A stretch of 64,000 bases of DNA, from assembly GCA_035538515.1 (NCBI GenBank), contig DATLKF010000007.1, forward strand, positions 131,438-195,437. Reading direction: 5' to 3'. This stretch comes from Gemmatimonadales bacterium (GTDB taxonomy: Bacteria; Gemmatimonadota; Gemmatimonadetes; Gemmatimonadales; GWC2-71-9). Of this stretch, positions 4,477-62,818 are shown piece by piece (positions within the stretch are counted from its first letter, which is position 1; each line of letters begins with the position of its first letter). Under the pieces are notes generated by a model. The model searched no databases. It saw only the letters and a list, made by a program, of their open reading frames with translations, and was not told the DNA's origin. Both the position numbers and the translations under genes were made by a program.

Positions 4477-5255
4477 CCATGTGGCAGGGAATCGTTCTGG
4501 GACTGGTGCAGGGGCTCACGGAGTTCCTCCCGGTCTCGAGCTCCGGGCATTTGCGCGTGCTCGAGGTGGTCGCGGGAGTCCATGCGCCCGGTGTCTTCGT
4601 GGAGGTGAGCCTGCACGTGGCGACGTTGGGGTCGGTGCTCGTCGTTTACGGGCGGCGCCTGTGGAGCATCGTGCGCGGGGCGCTGGTGCGACAACCGGCC
4701 GATCTGCGGACGGCGGGCTTGCTCGCGATCGCGACGCTGCCGGCTGGCGTCATCGGGGTCATGTTCCACCGGCAAGTCGAGGCAGCAGCATCACTGCTGC
4801 TCGTCGGCGCGGGATTCATGGTGACGGGTTTCATGAACTGGTCCACTCGCGGGCGGGCCGGTAGCCGCCTGGAGCCCACGGTCGCGGTTGCCACGGGGAT
4901 CGGGTTCGCGCAAGCGCTGGCGGCGGTATTCCGCGGCGTCTCTCGGTCGGGGTCGACCGTGTGCGCAGCCCTATGGGGCGGCCTCGGCCCGGCGGCCGCC
5001 GCGGAGTTCAGCTTCCTGCTCGCGGTTCCGGTGATCGCCGGCGCCGCTCTGGTCGAAGGACGGCACATGGCGGTGAGCGTCGCGGCGGTCGGGGCGGCAC
5101 CGCTGGCGCTGAGCTTCGTCCTCGCGTTTGCGAGTGGGATCTGGTCCATCCGGTTTCTCGTGGCGCTGCTCCAGCGAGGCCGGTTCTACACGTTCGCGCC
5201 GTACAACTGGGCCATCGGCCTGCTGACGATCGCGTACGCGCTGTGGCGCGGCTGA
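4473..5255 (+). CDS. uppP: undecaprenyl-diphosphate phosphatase UppP/BacA
   Basis: Hallmark EFLPVSSSGHL near the N-terminus and a polytopic membrane profile. ATG 4473 forms an ATGA overlap with the upstream stop. The upstream part of ORF 4308.. overlaps the previous gene. Confidence 0.87.
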   Translation: MTMWQGIVLGLVQGLTEFLPVSSSGHLRVLEVVAGVHAPGVFVEVSLHVATLGSVLVVYGRRLWSIVRGALVRQPADLRTAGLLAIATLPAGVIGVMFHRQVEAAASLLLVGAGFMVTGFMNWSTRGRAGSRLEPTVAVATGIGFAQALAAVFRGVSRSGSTVCAALWGGLGPAAAAEFSFLLAVPVIAGAALVEGRHMAVSVAAVGAAPLALSFVLAFASGIWSIRFLVALLQRGRFYTFAPYNWAIGLLTIAYALWRG

Positions 5256-5995
5256 CGCTCGACGGCGTCCCGGCCGCGGATCTCGCCGCCCGCTGGGGTG
5301 TGCCGCAATGCGGACTCTTTCGCCGGCTCGACTCGACCCTGACGGCAGTGCACGATCTCGCCCCGCAAGGAGCGCCCGCGGGCACGCTGGTGATCGCCGA
5401 AGAGCAGACCGCCGGCCGTGGACGGGACGGCCGCACCTGGCACTCCCCTCCGGGCGGCGTCTGGCTCGGCATGCTGCTGCGCCCGGCACGTGGCGAGCTC
5501 GCGGTCCTGTCCGTCCGCGTGGGGCTCGCCGTCGCCGACGCGGTGGACGCCCTGCTCGGCCGGGTCGAGACGCAGCTCAAGTGGCCGAACGACGTCGTGC
5601 TGGGAGAGCGCAAGCTCGCGGGAATCCTGTGCGAGGGCCGCTGGCACGGCGAGACACTGCAATGGCTGGCGCTCGGCGTAGGGATGAACGTCTGCAACCC
5701 GATCCCCGTCGCCGTGGCGCGCCAAGCGGTGGCGCTGAGCGAATGGCTCCCGTCCGTGCAGCGGCTCGACGTGCTGGATCGCTTGGTGCCAGCGCTTCAC
5801 GAGCTGACAGTCGGCGATCCCGCGCTGAGTGAGCGCGAGTGCGCGGCGTTCGCGGCGCGCGACTGGTTGCTGGGTCGCCAGTTACGGTCGCCGGCCGCCG
5901 GTCGCGCGCGTGGCCTCCGCCCCGACGGCGCCCTGCTCGTCGATCTCGGGGCGGCGACGGTGGCCGTGCGGGAGGGGCATGTGGAGCTGGCATAA
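5243..5995 (+). CDS. birA: biotin--[acetyl-CoA-carboxylase] ligase BirA (no HTH domain)
   Basis: GRGRDGRTWHSPPGG and KWPNDV...KLAGILCE motifs. Start inferred at in-frame GTG 5243 (13-nt overlap with uppP). The start is uncertain. Confidence 0.75.
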   Translation: MARLTLDGVPAADLAARWGVPQCGLFRRLDSTLTAVHDLAPQGAPAGTLVIAEEQTAGRGRDGRTWHSPPGGVWLGMLLRPARGELAVLSVRVGLAVADAVDALLGRVETQLKWPNDVVLGERKLAGILCEGRWHGETLQWLALGVGMNVCNPIPVAVARQAVALSEWLPSVQRLDVLDRLVPALHELTVGDPALSERECAAFAARDWLLGRQLRSPAAGRARGLRPDGALLVDLGAATVAVREGHVELA

Positions 5996-52869: not shown

Positions 52870-52987
52870 GGATTCTCTGCACAAGTCGCGTGGTGCACAG
52901 TGCCGCGGTGCATGTTTCGGTGCGCCCTCGCGTGTAGGCGCCCAGCGTCCCACCCCGGCACCAGGTTCCCCTTGCGCAGAGATTCCC
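52869..52987. repeat. 17-bp imperfect inverted repeat spanning a convergent intergenic region
   Basis: GGGATTCTCTGCACAAG (52869-52885) pairs with CTTGCGCAGAGATTCCC (52971-52987) at 15 of 17 positions, with an 85-nt loop. Confidence 0.6.
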
Positions 52988-52997
52988 GAGTCGGTCC

Positions 52998-53405
52998 TTA
53001 GCCGGTTGAAGCGGTGTGGTCGGCGGCGTGGACCACAGAGTCCAGCCACCTCGCCAGCTGTTGGAAGCTGAAGGGCTTGCGAAACAGGGTGCAGGGGTTG
53101 CGCCGCACCCAGGCGCGAACGTCGGCAGCGTCGGCGTCGCCGCTCATCAACGCGATCCGGCCTTCGAGCCGGGGCCAGCGGCGGCTGATGGCGAGCGACA
53201 GCGCGAGCCCCGACATAGTCGGGAGTCGCACGTCCAACAGCACCGCCGTGACCGATTCCGCGCCGAGTAGTCGATACGCGGCATCGGGATCGCCGGTGCT
53301 CAGGACGTGATAGCCGACGCTCCTCAGCACGCTTTCGAGCGAGCTGCGCAGCGTAGCGTCGTCGTCGACGATCAGGACGGCGTGCAGTTTGGGCATCCTG
53401 AGCAT
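52998..53405 (-). CDS. single-domain response regulator (receiver)
   Basis: VLIVDDD...LLDVRLPTMSG......MSG....KPF pattern. 135 aa. Confidence 0.8.
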   Translation of the reverse strand: MLRMPKLHAVLIVDDDATLRSSLESVLRSVGYHVLSTGDPDAAYRLLGAESVTAVLLDVRLPTMSGLALSLAISRRWPRLEGRIALMSGDADAADVRAWVRRNPCTLFRKPFSFQQLARWLDSVVHAADHTASTG

Positions 53406-53467
53406 AACATAATACTGCGAGGTGCCGCGGACCCGGCGGAGCGCGTAAGTTCAAGCGTGGCATAGCT

Positions 53468-53561
53468 GGGGGCGGATCGGGCCTGGTGGTCTGACTGGTC
53501 TTCAAAACCAGTTGGGGTCCGTTTGGACCTCGGTAGGTTCGATTCCTACCCGCTCCCGCCA
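53468..53561 (+). tRNA. selC: tRNA-Sec (anticodon TCA)
   Basis: Folded by hand. 8-bp acceptor stem (GGGGGCGG/CCGCTCCC with one G-U). 6-bp D stem with loop TGGT. Anticodon stem CTGGT/ACCAG with loop CTTCAAA. Long variable arm (GGGGTCC-GTTT-GGACCTC). 5-bp T stem GTAGG/CCTAC with TTCGATT, discriminator G and encoded CCA. Close to my recollection of E. coli selC. Confidence 0.9.
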
Positions 53562-53584
53562 CCCGCCCTCCGAGCGCGCGTTAC

Positions 53585-53962
53585 CTGACTCGGGCTGGGC
53601 GACTCTTCAATGCTGCACCCCACTCCCTGGAGAGTACCCTGGAAGCCGCCATCACCGAGCTCAGCGCCGACCGGGCCCTGATAGCCAGGACGGCCGCTGG
53701 CGACCGCCGAGCCTGGGACCAGCTGTGCAACCGGCACTCCCTGCTCCTCTTCGCGTACGCGTGCGATACCGTAGGCGATCCGGAGCAGGCTGAGGAGATC
53801 GTGACAGAAACGCTCCAGGAAGCCTGGTGCTCGGCGGCCCAATTTGACTTGACGGGGGACCGCGATCCGGCTTCCTGGCTGCTTGGTCTGGCGCGCGGCA
53901 TCTGTCGGCGCGCCATCGATGCTGAGGTCGCAGGCACGTCCCGCCCCCGCCCCATGCGGTGA
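53585..53962 (+). pseudogene. ECF sigma factor fragment (region 2 only; no canonical start, region 4 missing)
   Basis: The frame-2 translation ...ALIARTAAGDRRAWDQLCNRHSLLLFAYACDTVGDPEQAEEIVTETLQEAWCSAAQF......SWLLGLARGICRRAID is a sigma70 region 2. There is no ATG/GTG/TTG upstream of it (only CTG 53585). The stop TGA 53960-53962 abuts the tRNA-derived repeat. Confidence 0.5.
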
Positions 53963-53970
53963 AGCCATCC

Positions 53971-54018
53971 GGGGTCCTGTTGGACCTCGATGGGTTCGAT
54001 TCCTCCCCGCTCCCGCCA
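53971..54018 (+). repeat. Direct repeat of the 3' half of tRNA-Sec (att-like scar)
   Basis: GGGGTCCTGTTGGACCTCGATGGGTTCGATTCCTCCCCGCTCCCGCCA matches tRNA positions 53514-53561, with 5 differences counted by eye. Confidence 0.85.
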
Positions 54019-54303
54019 CGCCGTGTCGCATGCAAGCGACAGGCGTGCTCTCGGTGCGCCTCACAATCGGCAGGTCCTGCGACGCATGTCGCACCGCGTG
54101 GTGGCATCGAGTTTGCGTGGTCAGGAAGCGGCCCGCAGGAGTGGGACCGCGCCCCCGTCTTCGCTCGGCCTTGAGGAACGAGGACCGGATTGCGGGTTCG
54201 CGGCCACTCCCTGCGGCGCCGCCAGCGCCCGCCCGCCGCACGCCGTTCGCGGAAAACGCCGCTGTCCGGTATGTTGTCCGCTCCTCGACCAGGAGCCGCC
54301 GGC

Positions 54304-55374
54304 ATGCACCCGTTCCTGCTCCTCCTGCTGCTTATCTTCGTGCGCCCCGGCCCCCGCCCCGGCATCGGTCCCGACTCGCTGCCCTTTGCCACAGTGCAGC
54401 TCGACCGCGAGGAGCAGCGCCTGGTGATCGAGCTGCCGCCGGTGGACCTGCCGGCGGCGGGTCGGGGGCAGGGTGAAGCGATGGTGGGGCTGCCGCTCTG
54501 CCAACTGCACGTCCCGGTCAGCGCGTCACTCCACAGCGCGCGGGTCGAGGTGCTAGACGGCTCGGGACGGGCGCTGCCGCACACACTGCTCCATCACTTC
54601 AACCTGAGCGACCCCGATCACCGCGAGCTGTTTCTGCCGATCGGGCTGCACGTGCTCGCCGCCAGCCGGGAGACCCCGACCATTACCGTGCCCCGCTTCC
54701 TCTTCGGACTGCCGTTGAAGCGCGGCCAACGGCTAATCGCGGGCGCCATGCTGGCGAACACATCGGCCGAGGCCTATCACGGCGTGCGGGTGCGGCTCGT
54801 GCTGCGCTACGTGCCGGGCGGGCGGCCGTGGCCTCTATACCGGGCTTACCCCTGGGCCATCGACGTGCAGTATCCACTCGGGCGTCCACCTAACGGAAGC
54901 AAAGCGTTCGACCTGCCGCCCGGCCGCACCGAGCGGTTCTGGGAGGGTAGCCCGGCGATCGCGGGCACCATTCTCGGCCTCGGTGGTCACCTACACGACT
55001 TCGGCGTCAGTCTCGAGCTCAAGGATGTGACCAGCGGGCAAGTTCTGTGGCAGGGTACACCAGTGACGGACGGAACCGGCCGCATTATCAGCTTCCCACT
55101 CGCGCGGTTCTACAACTGGCACCGTCTCGGCGTGCATGTGGCGCCGGAGCACCGCTACCGACTCACCGCGGTGTACGACAACCACACCGGTCACGCGATA
55201 CGGGACGGAGGCATGGGTGCCGTGGCCGGCCTGTTTGTCCCCGATCGCGGGACGACATGGCCCGCCGTCGACATTCGGGACACGCTTTATCAACAAGACC
55301 TGGCCGCCACGATCCGCTCGGGCAGTACCGACATGATGGCGGACATGATGATGAACCATCACGCCGATCCCTGA
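54304..55374 (+). CDS. hypothetical secreted protein, possible PHM/DBH-like copper monooxygenase fold, Met/His-rich C-terminus
   Basis: AGGAG lies 8 nt upstream of ATG 54304 (alternative ATG 54271). Signal-like LLLLLLIFV. His/Met pattern HH(97-98)...H159...HxH(229,231)...M304. Tail DMMADMMMNHHADP. The function is inference only. Confidence 0.6.
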   Translation: MHPFLLLLLLIFVRPGPRPGIGPDSLPFATVQLDREEQRLVIELPPVDLPAAGRGQGEAMVGLPLCQLHVPVSASLHSARVEVLDGSGRALPHTLLHHFNLSDPDHRELFLPIGLHVLAASRETPTITVPRFLFGLPLKRGQRLIAGAMLANTSAEAYHGVRVRLVLRYVPGGRPWPLYRAYPWAIDVQYPLGRPPNGSKAFDLPPGRTERFWEGSPAIAGTILGLGGHLHDFGVSLELKDVTSGQVLWQGTPVTDGTGRIISFPLARFYNWHRLGVHVAPEHRYRLTAVYDNHTGHAIRDGGMGAVAGLFVPDRGTTWPAVDIRDTLYQQDLAATIRSGSTDMMADMMMNHHADP

Positions 55375-55443
55375 CGGTAGGTTGCCGGAGGCCCTGTGGT
55401 GTGCGTCACGCCACGGCGGCGTCGGTCTAGCTAAGGTTCGCGC

Positions 55444-55803
55444 GTGACAGGAATGAAGTGGGGCCGGCTTCAGGTAGACGTCACGTGCGCGTTGCGCCGT
55501 GGGGCTTGGTACCGCGTGGCGCGACTCGCTGCCCTCGAAGCCGTCCTCGACGTGAACCGCCAGCCGCTCAAGATCCCTCACTACCTCATCCAGATCGTCT
55601 CGACGCCGCCCACGCGGTGGTCGGTGGTACCGCGTCCCGAGGAGGCGGGTGAGTTGCCGGCCGCGTGGGGCTCGCACTACGCCGTGTGCCCGAGCTGCCG
55701 CGAGCGCGCCGCGCTGCGCGGTCGGCCGCGGCGCCTGGAGTGCAACCGCTGCCACGGGAACTTCGAGGTGGCGTGGGACGAGGAGTACCTCACCGCGTTG
55801 TAA
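55444..55803 (+). CDS. hypothetical protein with C-terminal zinc-ribbon (CxxC...CxxC)
   Basis: 119 aa with CPSC and CNRC pairs. The 3' end overlaps the thrC 3' end by 14 nt (convergent). Confidence 0.45.
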   Translation: MTGMKWGRLQVDVTCALRRGAWYRVARLAALEAVLDVNRQPLKIPHYLIQIVSTPPTRWSVVPRPEEAGELPAAWGSHYAVCPSCRERAALRGRPRRLECNRCHGNFEVAWDEEYLTAL

Positions 55804-57073
55804 CGGCGCGCTCCACCGCGTCGATGCGGGCCTCTATTTCCACCGGCTGGTTCGCAGCATCTGCCCGGGTGATCGACTCGGGATCCTTCAGCAGATGACC
55901 CGTCAGCACCGCAACCACCCGTTCGCCGGGGCGGATCACTCCCTCGCGGACTAGGCGTCGGGCCCCCGCCGGGGCGGCGGCACTGGCCGGCTCACAGCCG
56001 ATGCCCGCCCGGTCCACCACCGCTTTGGCTTCGAGGATCTCGTCGTCGCCGACCGTCGTGACCACGCCATTCGTGTCGCGGATCGCGCGTACGGCGCGCT
56101 GGTAGGAGACCGGATTCCCGATGTTGATCGCGGTGGCGACGGTGTGGGGCGTCACGCGGTGCGGCCGGGCGAAGCCGTCGTTGAAGCTGTGCGCGAACGG
56201 CGCGGCTCCTGCAGCCTGTACCGCCGCGAGCCGGGGCGCGCGATCGATCATGCCCCACACGCGCGCCTCTTCGAGCGCTTTACCGAACGCCGCCGTGTTT
56301 CCCAAATTGCCCGCGGGCAGCACGATCCAGTCGGGAGGCTCCCAGGCGAGCTGCTGTAGCAGCTCGAGCACGATCGTCTTCTGCCCCTCGAGCCGGAAGG
56401 GATTCACCGAGTTGAGGAGGTAGACGCCGAGCCGCTCGCTCGCCTGATCCACCAGCTCGAGACAATCGTCGAAGTTGCCCCGCACCAGTAGCGTGCGGGC
56501 GCCGTAGGCGAGCGCCTGAGCGAGCTTGCCAGCCGCGACCTGACCCTTGGGGACGATCACGAGCGCCGGCAGCCCCGCGAGCGCGGCGTACGCGGCGAGT
56601 GACGCCGCCGTGTTGCCAGTGGACGCGCAGGCCACGGCGCGCGCCCCAATGCGTCGTGCCTGGGTCACCCCGACCGTCATGCCCCGATCCTTGAACGAGC
56701 CGGTCGGGTTGTGGCCTTCGTGCTTGAGCAGCAGCTCTGGCGCGCCGACCCACCCGGCGACGGCCGCACTCGCGAGCAGCGGCGTGTTGCCCTCGGGGTA
56801 GGAAAGGATGTGCGGTCCCGCCGTCGGCATCACTGCTTCGGTAAAGCGCCACACGCCCGACGCCAGCGGGCCGCGGCGCACCGCGGTGCGGGCGTCGAAC
56901 GTCGCCCGCAGCGCATTGCCACCCTGGAGCGGCGGGGGCTGACGGACCTCGAGCAGGCCGTGGCAGCGCGGGCAGCGGGGGTGGGGAGCGGTTTCCGGGA
57001 TCTCGTTGCCGCAGGCGGCGCAGACCTGCCGGGGCGAAGGCGTGGGACGGGGGGGCAGCGGGGGCCCGCTCAT
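55790..57073 (-). CDS. thrC: threonine synthase with N-terminal zinc-ribbon extension
   Basis: PLP motif NPTGSFKDRG and full-length ThrC similarity. N-terminal CAAC...CPRC. ATGA overlap with the thrA stop. Confidence 0.9.
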   Translation of the reverse strand: MSGPPLPPRPTPSPRQVCAACGNEIPETAPHPRCPRCHGLLEVRQPPPLQGGNALRATFDARTAVRRGPLASGVWRFTEAVMPTAGPHILSYPEGNTPLLASAAVAGWVGAPELLLKHEGHNPTGSFKDRGMTVGVTQARRIGARAVACASTGNTAASLAAYAALAGLPALVIVPKGQVAAGKLAQALAYGARTLLVRGNFDDCLELVDQASERLGVYLLNSVNPFRLEGQKTIVLELLQQLAWEPPDWIVLPAGNLGNTAAFGKALEEARVWGMIDRAPRLAAVQAAGAAPFAHSFNDGFARPHRVTPHTVATAINIGNPVSYQRAVRAIRDTNGVVTTVGDDEILEAKAVVDRAGIGCEPASAAAPAGARRLVREGVIRPGERVVAVLTGHLLKDPESITRADAANQPVEIEARIDAVERAVTTR

Positions 57074-59604
57074 GCGCCCGCGAGCTTCAGCACATCGTTC
57101 AGGATCCCCCCGGCCGTCACGGCTGGCCCCGCACCGGGTCCGGTGATCACCAGCGGGTTTTTCCGATACCGCGTCGTCGTGAAGATGAACTGGTTGTCCG
57201 TCCCGTTGAGCGCTGCCATCGGGCTCGACGCGAGGACCGCGACAAGGCCGACGCGGATGCGTCGCGGCGTCACGATCGCCCGATAGCGCAGCACGCCGCC
57301 GCGCGCGCGCGCCGCTTCTACCCGCTGTGCCCACAGGCCGTCGAACCGGTCGAGCGACGCGAGAAACGCCTCGAGGCTGAGCCGCTCGGCGCCCGGCGGC
57401 ACGAGCGATTCGACCGCGATGTCCTCGAGCCCTCCCGCGAAGCCGAGCAGGCGCCCCAGAATCAACGCCTTCCGAGCGACGTCCATGCCCGACAGGTCGT
57501 CCCGCGGGTCCGGCTCGGGATAGCCCTTGGCGATCGCGCCGCGCAGCGCCGCCGAGAATGTGGCGCCGCGGCCCAGCTCTCCGAAGAGGTAGCCGAGCGT
57601 GCCCGACGGGCAGCCCTCGATCTTCGAGACCCGGTCGCCCGACTCCACGAGCTTCTGGTAGGTGTCGATGATCGGCAGCCCGGCGCCCACGGTGGCCTCG
57701 AGCAGCAGCCGCCGTCCATGTGCCAGGGCGGCGGCCCGCAGTGCATCGTACTGCCGCTTGTGCGCCGTGACGGGGCGTTTGTTGGCGAGCACAACGTGCA
57801 TGCCAGCGGCGAGCGCGCCGGTGAGGGTTTCAGTCGTATCGTCGGCCGTCAGATCCACGAGGATCGGATTCGCAAGCGCGTGGCGGCCGACGAACGCCAC
57901 CGCCTCGCCGGCGCTCGCATGCCGGCCGCCCGGGGCTTTGGCGAGCGGTGTGCCGTTCGCCTTCGCCTCGCCGAGCGCCGCGAGCCGCCGGGGAGAAAGG
58001 CCGTGGGCGTCGAACACCAGGCCGCTGCGGTCGATCACCGCGACGATGCGGAGCGTCACGCCGTCCCGTTTCACCTTCGCGATCATGGGCGCGAGCGCCC
58101 GCCCGATCTGGCCGAACCCCAGGAGCACGACGTCGCTCCGCTCCGGGTGCGTCACCGCTCCGCCGCCGATTTTCGACAGCTGGAACGCGGCGTGCACCGC
58201 CCGGAGCGCGCGCGCCGCCTCCCGGCCGTCCACGACGAGCGAGAGGTTGAGCTCGGACGACCCCTGGGCCGTCGCGATCACGTTGATCCCCGCCTCCGCC
58301 AGCGCCGAGAACACCCGCGCCGCGATACCCGGCGTGGCCGCCATGCCGAGCCCCACCACCACGAGTGTGGCGAGCCCGCTCTGCACCTCCACCCCGTCGA
58401 TCTCCTGGCGCGCGATTTCCGGGCGAAACGTCTCCTCGAGGCTCTTGCGCGCTCGTGTCGCGCTCTCGGCGGGGACGCTGAAGCAGATGGACTGCTCGGA
58501 CGAGGCTTGGGTGATGAGCGACACCGAGATCCCTTCGTGGTGCACGGCGGCGAATGTGCGCGCCGCGATGCCGGGCACACCCAGCATTCCACTCCCCGTT
58601 ACCGTGAGCAAGGCCTGGCCCGGGATCGCCGAAAGGGCCTTGACCGGATACTGCTCGAGCGTGCGGCGCCGCGAGATCTCGGTTCCGAGCGACGCCGGGT
58701 CGGCGAACGGGCGGACCCGGATCGCGACATTCCGCTTGAGCACAGGGATGAGCGCGCGCGGATGCAACACCTTGGCGCCGTAGTAGGCGAGCTCCGCCGC
58801 TTCGCGCACGTGCACCTGCGGCACCACGCGCGCGTCCGGCACGATCCGTGGATCGGCGGTGAGCAGGCCGGGCACGTCCTTCCACAGCGACACCTCGCGC
58901 GCGCCAAGCACGCGGGCGAGCAGAGTCGCGGTCAGATCCGATCCGCCGCGGCCTAACGTGGCGACCTGTCCGTCCGGAGTCGCGCCGAGGAATCCCGGCA
59001 CCACGGGCACGGTGCCGCGCGCCAGCAGCGGGCCGAGGATGCGGCGGGCTGCGCGCTCGGTGCGGCGGACGTCAGGGGAGGCCCGGCCGAACATGCCGTC
59101 CGTCTGGATGACCTCCGTGGCGTCGACATAGGCGACCGGGCAGCGCACCTCACTCAGCGCGGCGCTGAACACACGCGCCGAAAGGCGTTCGCCGCGCGCC
59201 AGCAGGTAATCCACCGTGCGGGGCGTGAGCTCGCGCAGCACCCGCAGCCCGCCGGCGAGCTGCTCCAGCTCGGTGACGGCGGCGTCGATCAGCTGCAACA
59301 GCTCGTCCAGCCGGGGGCCTCGAGGCACGAGCGCGCGCACCGTCTCGACGTGCTTCGCCCGCAGCATCTCGGCCGCGCCTCGCACGTGTTGGACGTCGCC
59401 CGCTCCCGTTGCTGCGCGATTGGCAGCGTCGAGCAGCGCGTCCGTCACGCCGGCCATTGCCGAGACGACCACGACCAGCGGTGGGGCGCCGTCGGCCGAT
59501 CGTTGCGCAAGGACGATCTGCGCCGCGTGTCGCATGCCTGCGGCGTCGGCGAGCGACGCGCCGCCGAACTTATGGATATGGGGAAGGAGGCTACTGCGTC
59601 TCAT
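57070..59604 (-). CDS. thrA: bifunctional aspartokinase / homoserine dehydrogenase
   Basis: N-terminal KFGGASL...VVVVSAMAGVTD aspartokinase, central ACT region and C-terminal homoserine dehydrogenase (LLGFGQIGR, NKRP). Start at ATG 59604. Confidence 0.9.
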   Translation of the reverse strand: MRRSSLLPHIHKFGGASLADAAGMRHAAQIVLAQRSADGAPPLVVVVSAMAGVTDALLDAANRAATGAGDVQHVRGAAEMLRAKHVETVRALVPRGPRLDELLQLIDAAVTELEQLAGGLRVLRELTPRTVDYLLARGERLSARVFSAALSEVRCPVAYVDATEVIQTDGMFGRASPDVRRTERAARRILGPLLARGTVPVVPGFLGATPDGQVATLGRGGSDLTATLLARVLGAREVSLWKDVPGLLTADPRIVPDARVVPQVHVREAAELAYYGAKVLHPRALIPVLKRNVAIRVRPFADPASLGTEISRRRTLEQYPVKALSAIPGQALLTVTGSGMLGVPGIAARTFAAVHHEGISVSLITQASSEQSICFSVPAESATRARKSLEETFRPEIARQEIDGVEVQSGLATLVVVGLGMAATPGIAARVFSALAEAGINVIATAQGSSELNLSLVVDGREAARALRAVHAAFQLSKIGGGAVTHPERSDVVLLGFGQIGRALAPMIAKVKRDGVTLRIVAVIDRSGLVFDAHGLSPRRLAALGEAKANGTPLAKAPGGRHASAGEAVAFVGRHALANPILVDLTADDTTETLTGALAAGMHVVLANKRPVTAHKRQYDALRAAALAHGRRLLLEATVGAGLPIIDTYQKLVESGDRVSKIEGCPSGTLGYLFGELGRGATFSAALRGAIAKGYPEPDPRDDLSGMDVARKALILGRLLGFAGGLEDIAVESLVPPGAERLSLEAFLASLDRFDGLWAQRVEAARARGGVLRYRAIVTPRRIRVGLVAVLASSPMAALNGTDNQFIFTTTRYRKNPLVITGPGAGPAVTAGGILNDVLKLAGA

Positions 59605-60532: not shown

Positions 60533-60559
60533 CGCCCGCGCTGTGCCACGCCGCGGGCG
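60533..60559. promoter_or_regulatory. terminator-like hairpin in the divergent thrB/asd intergenic region
   Basis: CGCCCGCG-N11-CGCGGGCG (8-bp stem). It is followed by T5 on the plus strand and by TTTCTGTTTCC on the minus strand, just upstream of the thrB SD. Confidence 0.45.
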
Positions 60560-60673
60560 GTCGCTTTTTAGCACCTTATTTTACGTGGCGGCAATACGCG
60601 GCAAATCACCACGGGCGGTTCGGTTGTATGTTCAATACTCACTGTGGGCTACGGCGGCGTCAAGGAGAAGGCG

Positions 60674-61723: not shown

Positions 61724-61918
61724 GGGACCAGCAGTGTGAGGGCCGTCACACTCTGACGGGCTTCTCACCACGTCGATGTGACTTCACACCCGGCTCCGGT
61801 GTCTTTACTCTACCCCAAGCGCTTCCCGAGACGCCGTTAACGCTTGCGACGGGCTCTCCGTCTGACCCGGCGCCCCCGGAACCGCGCCCTGTACTCGCAC
61901 CCGTCGGAGGATCGTCGC

Positions 61919-62818
61919 ATGCGTCGCATGTCTCGGAAAGCCTGGCGCTTCGCCGCTGGCTGTACCACGGCCGCGCTGTTCGCCGCGTGTTCCACCTCAC
62001 CCTCGACGTCTCCCCAGAATCCCGTGCTCACCCAACCCGAGGCCAACGCCGTCGCCGAAGTCGTCACGACCGATGCGGCCTCGTTGGCCGGTGGCGCGAC
62101 GTTCGACTTCGCGACCGGCGTGCCGTTCACTCTGGCGCCCATGCCCGGTGCGCCGGCCATGGCCGCGTCAACCGCGGGCTGCACGCCCGTCCGGAGCCCG
62201 TCGCCCGTGACCAACTCCGACGGCGATCCGGTGCCCGATACGGTGAACATCGCCTTCACCGGTTGCACGTTCACCGGAAACGGGACCACCGTCACCCTGA
62301 GCGGGTCGATCGACATCGTCGATCCGACGCCGCGTACGACGGACCAGTCGTTCCGTACGCGCTCCCACGACTTCACCCGGTCCGTCACCAACTCGGCGAC
62401 CGGAACGACGCGGTCCGTGGTCGAAAACGGAGTTCGGTCCGTGACCGGCACCGCCGACCAAATCCAAGTTTACGATACGACGACGACTGCCTACACGTTC
62501 GCGACGAATGCGACGGCGACGCACGATCGCAAATGGTTGGCGACATTCGCCGCCGACCAGCCGGGCTCGATCCAGCTTGGCTCGGCTCTCCCCAGTGGCA
62601 ACTTGAGTATCAACGGGTCGTCGACGTTCACCTCTCCCACCAACAGCTACTCGCTGGAAGTGTCAACGAGCCCCGCGCTGCATTACAACGCGAGCTGCAC
62701 CGTCCAGCCCCGGTTCGATTCCGGGACACTCACGGTCAAGGTGACCAAGGGCACCGCATCGACCACGGTGACGATCGACTTCAAGGCATGCGGCCAGTAC
62801 ATGGTCACGCGCTCCTAG
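61919..62818 (+). CDS. hypothetical lipoprotein (Thr/Ser-rich, beta-rich)
   Basis: GGAGG lies 8 nt upstream of ATG 61919. Signal plus lipobox LFAAC. No family recognised. Confidence 0.6.
   Translation: MRRMSRKAWRFAAGCTTAALFAACSTSPSTSPQNPVLTQPEANAVAEVVTTDAASLAGGATFDFATGVPFTLAPMPGAPAMAASTAGCTPVRSPSPVTNSDGDPVPDTVNIAFTGCTFTGNGTTVTLSGSIDIVDPTPRTTDQSFRTRSHDFTRSVTNSATGTTRSVVENGVRSVTGTADQIQVYDTTTTAYTFATNATATHDRKWLATFAADQPGSIQLGSALPSGNLSINGSSTFTSPTNSYSLEVSTSPALHYNASCTVQPRFDSGTLTVKVTKGTASTTVTIDFKACGQYMVTRS

Follow-up and report, generated by a model that had tools for sequence, protein, structure and literature searches.

The tRNA-Sec gene (selC) is a classic integration site in enterobacteria, and in the islands found there in Enterobacteriaceae, such as LEE, PAI I of E. 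coli 536 and SHI-2, the inserted DNA starts immediately 3′ of a tRNA that stays intact and is delimited by a direct repeat of the 3′ terminus of that tRNA. These islands are tens of kilobases long, carry a P4-type integrase together with cargo operons, and have short repeats restricted to the extreme 3′ end of the tRNA. Integrases that cross over in the anticodon loop reportedly produce a repeat layout that begins in the anticodon loop and extends to the 3′ end. Partial tRNA genes are said to be fossils of past integrations, as with the archaeal integrated elements, in which the far end is occupied by a non-functional 3′ piece of the tRNA and a recognisable integrase gene or pseudogene is usually present. 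To our knowledge, few mobile elements have been described in Gemmatimonadota. Cis-mobilizable elements (CIMEs) of streptococci, which are related to integrative conjugative elements (ICEs) and integrative mobilizable elements (IMEs) but have decayed, have kept attL and attR and lost the genes for integration and transfer (PMC5704250). CIMEs usually span kilobases and are traceable to a known ICE or IME, and their mobilisation after accretion with an incoming element was shown experimentally.

The locus analysed here lies in 64 kb of DNA from a soil-dwelling member of the Gemmatimonadales (the window, meaning the whole stretch that was studied) and consists of a 457-bp insertion located just behind tRNA-Sec and delimited by a second copy of the 3′ portion of that tRNA. 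It shares with the selC islands the tRNA-Sec target, the position directly 3′ of the intact tRNA and the direct repeat, but differs from them in its host, in its size, in carrying one small gene and no integrase, and in its repeat, which covers 58 nt from the anticodon loop onward. The non-functional 3′ tRNA fragment at the far end and the extent of the identity block are also those described for the partial-tRNA fossils, except that the window has neither an integrase gene nor a pseudogene. As an integrase-less, att-flanked relic the structure matches the CIME definition, since attL and attR are retained (with attR diverged at 5 of 49 positions) and the integration and transfer genes are gone. 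Unlike the streptococcal CIMEs, it is below the kilobase scale and could be related to no identifiable autonomous element with the same att site in a limited sampling.

A 457-bp insertion at tRNA-Sec and the empty site in relatives

The tRNA-Sec gene (53468–53561, + strand, anticodon TCA, CCA encoded) is intact and was the only tRNA called by ARAGORN in the window. It matched Rfam RF01852 over its full length at 81.5 bits (gathering score 47) with the consensus Sec structure and one non-standard pair. Both predictors agreed with an earlier note on this DNA, in which a tRNA with the 8/6/5-bp Sec architecture, anticodon TCA and an end at 53561 had been folded by hand; the extended acceptor stem, 6-bp D stem, long variable arm and short T stem were all present. 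Orthologues were found at 10 Gemmatimonadota loci, and the pairs in the T stem and variable arm appeared to covary among these relatives when the alignment was judged by eye. The conservation across Gemmatimonadota together with this apparent covariation argues that the window tRNA-Sec is in use. Pfam scans of the main ORFs of the window (46 segments) detected no selA, selB or selD.

A repeat search, pairwise alignment and blastn revealed a duplication of the tRNA 3′ part with 49-nt cores at 53514–53562 and 53971–54019 that differed at 5 positions. Ungapped similarity extended over 58 nt at 84% identity, with 53505–53562 on the attL side matching 53962–54019 on the attR side (both + strand), so that mismatches amounted to 10% across the core and 16% across the full block, which starts in the anticodon loop and ends one base past the CCA. 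The earlier note had counted the same five mismatches by eye over the last 48 nt of the tRNA, recurring at 53971–54018, and its estimate of about 410 bp for the enclosed segment was close to the 408 nt measured between the cores (53563–53970). A 27-nt pattern derived from the repeat had exactly two matches in the 64-kb window with 0.00 expected in 100 shuffles; no additional copy of the repeat, and no tandem arrangement of att sites, exists in the window.

The attR copy is a degenerate duplicate in which the T stem is broken (ATGGG/CCTCC versus GTAGG/CCTAC in the tRNA), and neither ARAGORN nor Rfam, even at E ≤ 1, recognised a tRNA in it. The same Rfam result, together with the lack of tRNA 5′-half similarity upstream of attR, led us to reject a second, decayed whole tRNA-Sec at this position. 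In the tRNA-Sec alignment, the variable arm of attR is of a type seen only in the clade formed by the window and loci L010 and L007, and at two positions attR shares the base of the L010 and L007 tRNAs where the tRNA of the window itself differs. This agreement hints, if only weakly, that attR represents the original 3′ half after its displacement and that the tRNA acquired its present 3′ half from the element. Alternatively, the crossover might have occurred in the last 14 identical bases, with the left part of attR derived from an imperfect attP. The predicted attP junction, in which the left part of attR is joined to the right part of attL, would be ...AAGCCATCCGGGGTCCTGTTGGACCTCGATGGGTTCGATTCCTCCCCGCTCCCGCCAC followed by CCGCCCTCCGAGCGCGC.

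L010 (Gemmatimonadales SMAG_U8777) was collinear with the window on both flanks at about 82–84% identity. Window positions 53008–53572 aligned to L010 2699–3265 at 82%, and window 53962–58793 aligned to L010 3197–8000 at 84%, with the two alignments overlapping in L010 over the tRNA 3′ part only; L007 behaved likewise. Both loci contain a single tRNA-Sec followed directly by the hairpin and the gene that follow the second repeat copy in the window. This hairpin (54024–54041, + strand, TGTCGC-ATGCAA-GCGACA), which base-level alignment identified as the native tRNA-Sec trailer, is not followed by a T-run, and a scan of 53300–54400 for standard sigma-70 promoters and intrinsic terminators returned nothing there or elsewhere in that interval. 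Base-level alignment also showed that the 17-nt spacer between the tRNA end and the inserted gene unit (53563–53579, + strand) is unrelated to the post-tRNA sequence of L010 and L007. The empty site in these two relatives and their collinear flanks therefore indicate that the window carries a 457-bp insertion, and its 457 extra bases, with the intact tRNA at one end and the partial copy at the other, bear the attL/attR signature of integration into a tRNA gene. The integration footprint at selC that the earlier note had proposed was thereby supported by synteny. The 10 Gemmatimonadota tRNA-Sec loci had neither a second repeat copy nor a sigma-like gene downstream.

Base composition did not set the insert apart from its host, with a G+C content of 0.67 in the insert, 0.66–0.70 in the flanks and about 70% in the window. 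Because of this match, and because the attR variable arm is of the window/L010/L007 type, the donor was probably a close relative of the host. An exact-pattern scan of one genome per species yielded 18 loci with the att pattern, mostly at tRNA-Sec in Gemmatimonadota; all but one, which was cut at a contig end, hold the tRNA-Sec gene, and each had the pattern in a single copy.

The window appears to be metagenome-derived, and tRNA genes can break assemblies, as at L008 and L018, so we considered whether two strains had been chimerically joined at the tRNA-Sec repeat. Such an artefact is extremely unlikely, since a separately assembled Logan contig from run SRR8500449 (L035, 1879 nt) was 100% identical to window 52927–54805 and spanned the tRNA, the insert and both repeat copies. 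The copies, moreover, differ at 5 of 49 positions and so would be neither collapsed nor mis-joined, and both flanks are collinear with L010. L008 ends and L018 begins at tRNA-Sec, and these two contigs of a single metagenome-assembled genome (JBGQKD01) share an overlap of exactly 141 nt that crosses the tRNA. They were evaluated as a possible large island, which was rejected because the overlap is a k-mer overlap and the junction an ordinary assembly break. This break in the assembly graph may stem from variation among strains downstream of the tRNA.

A small zinc-ribbon protein (RGAWYR...EFE[IV]AWDE.YL; window 55444–55803, + strand) is a conserved downstream neighbour of tRNA-Sec across Gemmatimonadota and was also seen downstream of it in L011, L014, L015, L016 and L018, often as two tandem copies. 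In the window and L010 a further gene (54190–55374), which encodes about 400 aa and matches no Pfam family, lies between tRNA-Sec and the zinc-ribbon gene, and L007 has a different gene there. Since the intervening genes differ, the 3′ flank of tRNA-Sec is therefore variable in general.

The inserted sigma region 2 gene and its family

The insert contains one ORF of 103 codons that runs from ATC at 53651 to the TGA stop codon at 53960–53962 (53651–53962, + strand) in a frame that is open from 53537. Pfam detected only Sigma70_r2 in it, at 33.2 bits (cutoff 24) and covering profile positions 3–65 of 71, and a PDB profile search gave matches confined to region 2 of ECF sigma factors. The AlphaFold model (pLDDT 90) consisted of four helices and had its best fold matches in isolated region 2 of sigma-E and SigC, with target TM-scores of 0.85–0.88 and an rmsd of 1.5 Å. 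The cargo thus shares a confident sigma-2 fold with ECF sigma factors, which form group IV of the sigma-70 family, and with proteins in which region 2 stands alone, for example phage T4 gp55, but differs from the ECF factors in having no region 4, as the ORF ends 28 aa beyond its conserved WLLGLAR motif.

The earlier note had described a region-2-only ORF with no canonical start codon whose stop abuts the repeat, and each of these features stood up: the sole in-frame ATG, GTG or TTG is GTG 53801, two-thirds through the domain, and the stop codon lies 8 nt ahead of the 49-nt core. ATC 53651 aligned with the ATG of the closest subfamily (I-T-E-L-S-A-D versus M-R-Q-P-S-A-D) and is the only visible defect of the ORF, from which translation would presumably be reduced. 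An ATG is also present at 53610, but not in the reading frame of the sigma-like ORF, and its own frame reaches a stop after 23 codons. The window lacks about 28 nt relative to L031, where those nucleotides hold the ribosome-binding site and the ATG, so the 5′ region of the window ORF was remodelled.

The same note had taken the ORF for a truncated fragment of an ECF sigma factor, and this reading did not survive the comparison with homologues. An exhaustive HMMER search of 1.84 billion representatives gave best matches of 97–119 aa at 48–58% identity, and in each of them the alignment stopped 5–25 residues short of the C-terminus. In a profile search of 5.8 billion proteins, about 30 proteins of 89–132 aa scored at E values of 1e-26 to 1e-45, after which scores fell sharply to about 1e-13, where ECF sigmas of 184–205 aa with regions 2 and 4 begin. 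All of the ~30 closest relatives lack region 4, end shortly after region 2 and share the signature AWC...FD..GD....WLLGLAR; both members with a named organism are Gemmatimonadales. The window ORF belongs to this discrete Gemmatimonadales family of stand-alone region-2 proteins and is complete within it, having the normal family length, C-terminal length included, all family-invariant residues, and neither a frameshift nor an internal stop. A conserved C-terminal tail in P0001/P0002 was rejected as a family feature, as it overlaps a convergent DAHP synthase gene that is a possible source of the conservation.

Other genes of the family reside at varied chromosomal loci, next to lactate permease/OprB, next to DAHP synthase, or in tandem pairs downstream of tRNA-His. 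At many loci (L022 at 5122–5945, L027–L030, L032 and L033) a tandem pair is present in which the family gene comes second, after a more distant region-2-only paralogue, which is 161 aa long in L022; the pairs of L022 and L027 are those downstream of a tRNA-His gene. YCII genes occur nearby, as does, in L026, an ECF sigma gene with DUF6596 and TPR domains. Around the other family genes we found only short flanking repeats, as expected by chance, and no adjoining tRNA-like T-loop motifs.

Immediately upstream of ATG 53610, a pattern scan of the window located a promoter-like motif, GTTACC-N17-CTCTTCA (53580–53609, + strand), that is specific to the family. Its generalised form, GTKACY-N17-CTCTTYA, had no other exact match in the window and, at up to one mismatch, had 2 matches compared with 0.09 expected. 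The motif recurred upstream of family genes or their tandem paralogues at L020–L022, L026–L028 and L030–L033, and elsewhere in the fetched loci it appeared only as one antisense match (L033) and in L035, the duplicate contig of the window. Its function as a promoter is putative; it could serve a dedicated sigma factor or be a site of autoregulation. The second window match, a one-mismatch copy (GTGACT-N17-GTCTTTA, 61778–61807, + strand), lies 37 nt upstream of a lipoprotein-like ORF (61844–62818), which may belong to the same regulon as the sigma-region-2-only genes. Taken together, the insert is a single, complete gene unit whose start codon is weakened, and it leaves only 17 nt and 8 nt to spare between the att sites.

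Search for a parent element and origin of the insert

The Pfam scans of the main window ORFs (46 segments) found only housekeeping genes, among them mutL, groES/EL, serS, uvrD, gatA/B, aroA, the rimP-nusA-infB-rbfA-truB cluster, secD/F, tatD, fhs and a response regulator on one side, and thrC, aspartokinase-homoserine dehydrogenase, thrB and asd on the other. In agreement with the earlier note, which had seen neither an integrase nor selA, selB or selD in the window, no integrase, phage or conjugation gene was present among these ORFs, and the insert itself encodes the sigma-like ORF and no tyrosine or serine recombinase. An Rfam match to the SAM_alpha (SAM-II) riboswitch at 60547–60622 (− strand; 38.8 bits, gathering score 36) lies just upstream of, and overlaps, the predicted start of the thrB/hom/thrC string; SAM_alpha outside Alphaproteobacteria is unusual.

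The earlier note had pointed to relatives as a place to look for a full-length element with an integrase, and the loci and collections that we searched contained none. Within a limited sampling, no parent element emerged from the genome, metagenome and viral contig scans or from the phage and plasmid collections. A metagenome scan with the family profile returned 10 loci, none with tRNA-Sec; IMG/VR viral contigs had neither the att pattern nor the gene; the GenBank phage collection held no relative of the sigma-region-2-only protein; and the plasmid collection gave only generic ECF sigma matches below 42% identity. The ORF maps of the Gemmatimonadota tRNA-Sec loci, which were judged by inspection alone, showed no obvious island.

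The insert is probably the remnant of a site-specific integration of a mobile element at tRNA-Sec, of which two att sites and one cargo gene remain. According to this model, an element from a Gemmatimonadales donor would have recombined site-specifically into the 3′ part of the tRNA-Sec gene by means of an att site that mimicked the tRNA from the anticodon loop to the CCA. Such mimicry would have allowed integration to rebuild an intact tRNA (attL) and would have left the partial copy (attR) 457 bp downstream. The integrase and any other genes of a larger ancestral element would subsequently have been lost, most likely by internal deletion that reduced the element to its present 457 bp, leaving between the att sites the single unit of promoter-like motif and complete sigma-region-2-only gene. 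In its present state the cargo gene appears weakened by the change from ATG to ATC, attR is no longer able to pair into a T stem, and the tRNA is untouched. The span of the repeat, from the anticodon loop to the base after the CCA, was counted in favour of integrase-type integration. Counted against the relic model were the failure to find a parent element in the loci and collections searched and the boundaries of the insert, whose 17 nt ahead of the motif and 8 nt behind the stop codon are tidier than what a random deletion usually produces. In addition, if the att mismatches reflect decay after insertion, a gene this intact is unexpected unless it was maintained by selection.

An origin involving no recombinase, in which a partial tRNA-Sec duplication, or the capture of a gene through illegitimate recombination or repair, would have duplicated 58 nt of target, could account for the missing integrase and parent element and for the host-like composition of the insert. 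We consider it improbable, as the block from the anticodon loop to the base after the CCA is the classic footprint of a tRNA-targeting integrase, and the inserted gene has no source copy elsewhere in the window. The usual trace of such illegitimate events is a few bases of microhomology, which the 58-nt duplication exceeds.

The tidy boundaries and the intact coding sequence keep alive another explanation, in which the 457 bp form a minimal but complete cassette, non-autonomous and inserted in trans by an integrase encoded elsewhere. The insert is, after all, exactly one gene unit with minimal spacers, its ORF has the family-normal length with every invariant residue, and genes of the family occur at a range of chromosomal loci, in two cases downstream of a tRNA-His gene. 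This explanation is nevertheless rather unlikely, given that no other examined family member is flanked by a tRNA-like repeat, no second copy turned up anywhere in the genome and metagenome scans, the start codon is damaged and attR degenerate, and no candidate integrase is known. Its stronger version, a working miniature cassette composed of a promoter, a region-2-only regulator and a tRNA-Sec-mimicking att site and moved by a tRNA-Sec-specific recombinase in trans, appears quite doubtful. Such a unit would resemble an integron gene cassette in being of single-gene size and ending in a recombination site, but its site is a tRNA 3′ half and not an attC, it has its own promoter-like motif, and the window contains no IntI gene or cassette array. 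If a cassette were nonetheless the true explanation, small transcription-factor genes would spread one at a time in Gemmatimonadales through tRNA-directed cassette insertion of an integron-like kind, and the sigma-2-only proteins would be a new class of RNA-polymerase-binding modulators.

With a relic of integration as the preferred reading, the locus suggests that tRNA-Sec is an integration site also in Gemmatimonadales. It provides a clean example of a very small att-flanked relic with a matching empty site in a relative. An integrase-less, att-flanked tRNA relic is a known kind of feature, of which this is a new instance in a little-studied phylum, and the general understanding of integration and of selenocysteine decoding is unaltered. 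The more useful by-product is the tight family of stand-alone sigma region 2 proteins with its own conserved promoter-like motif, whose members could putatively compete with sigma factors on RNA polymerase or modulate them.
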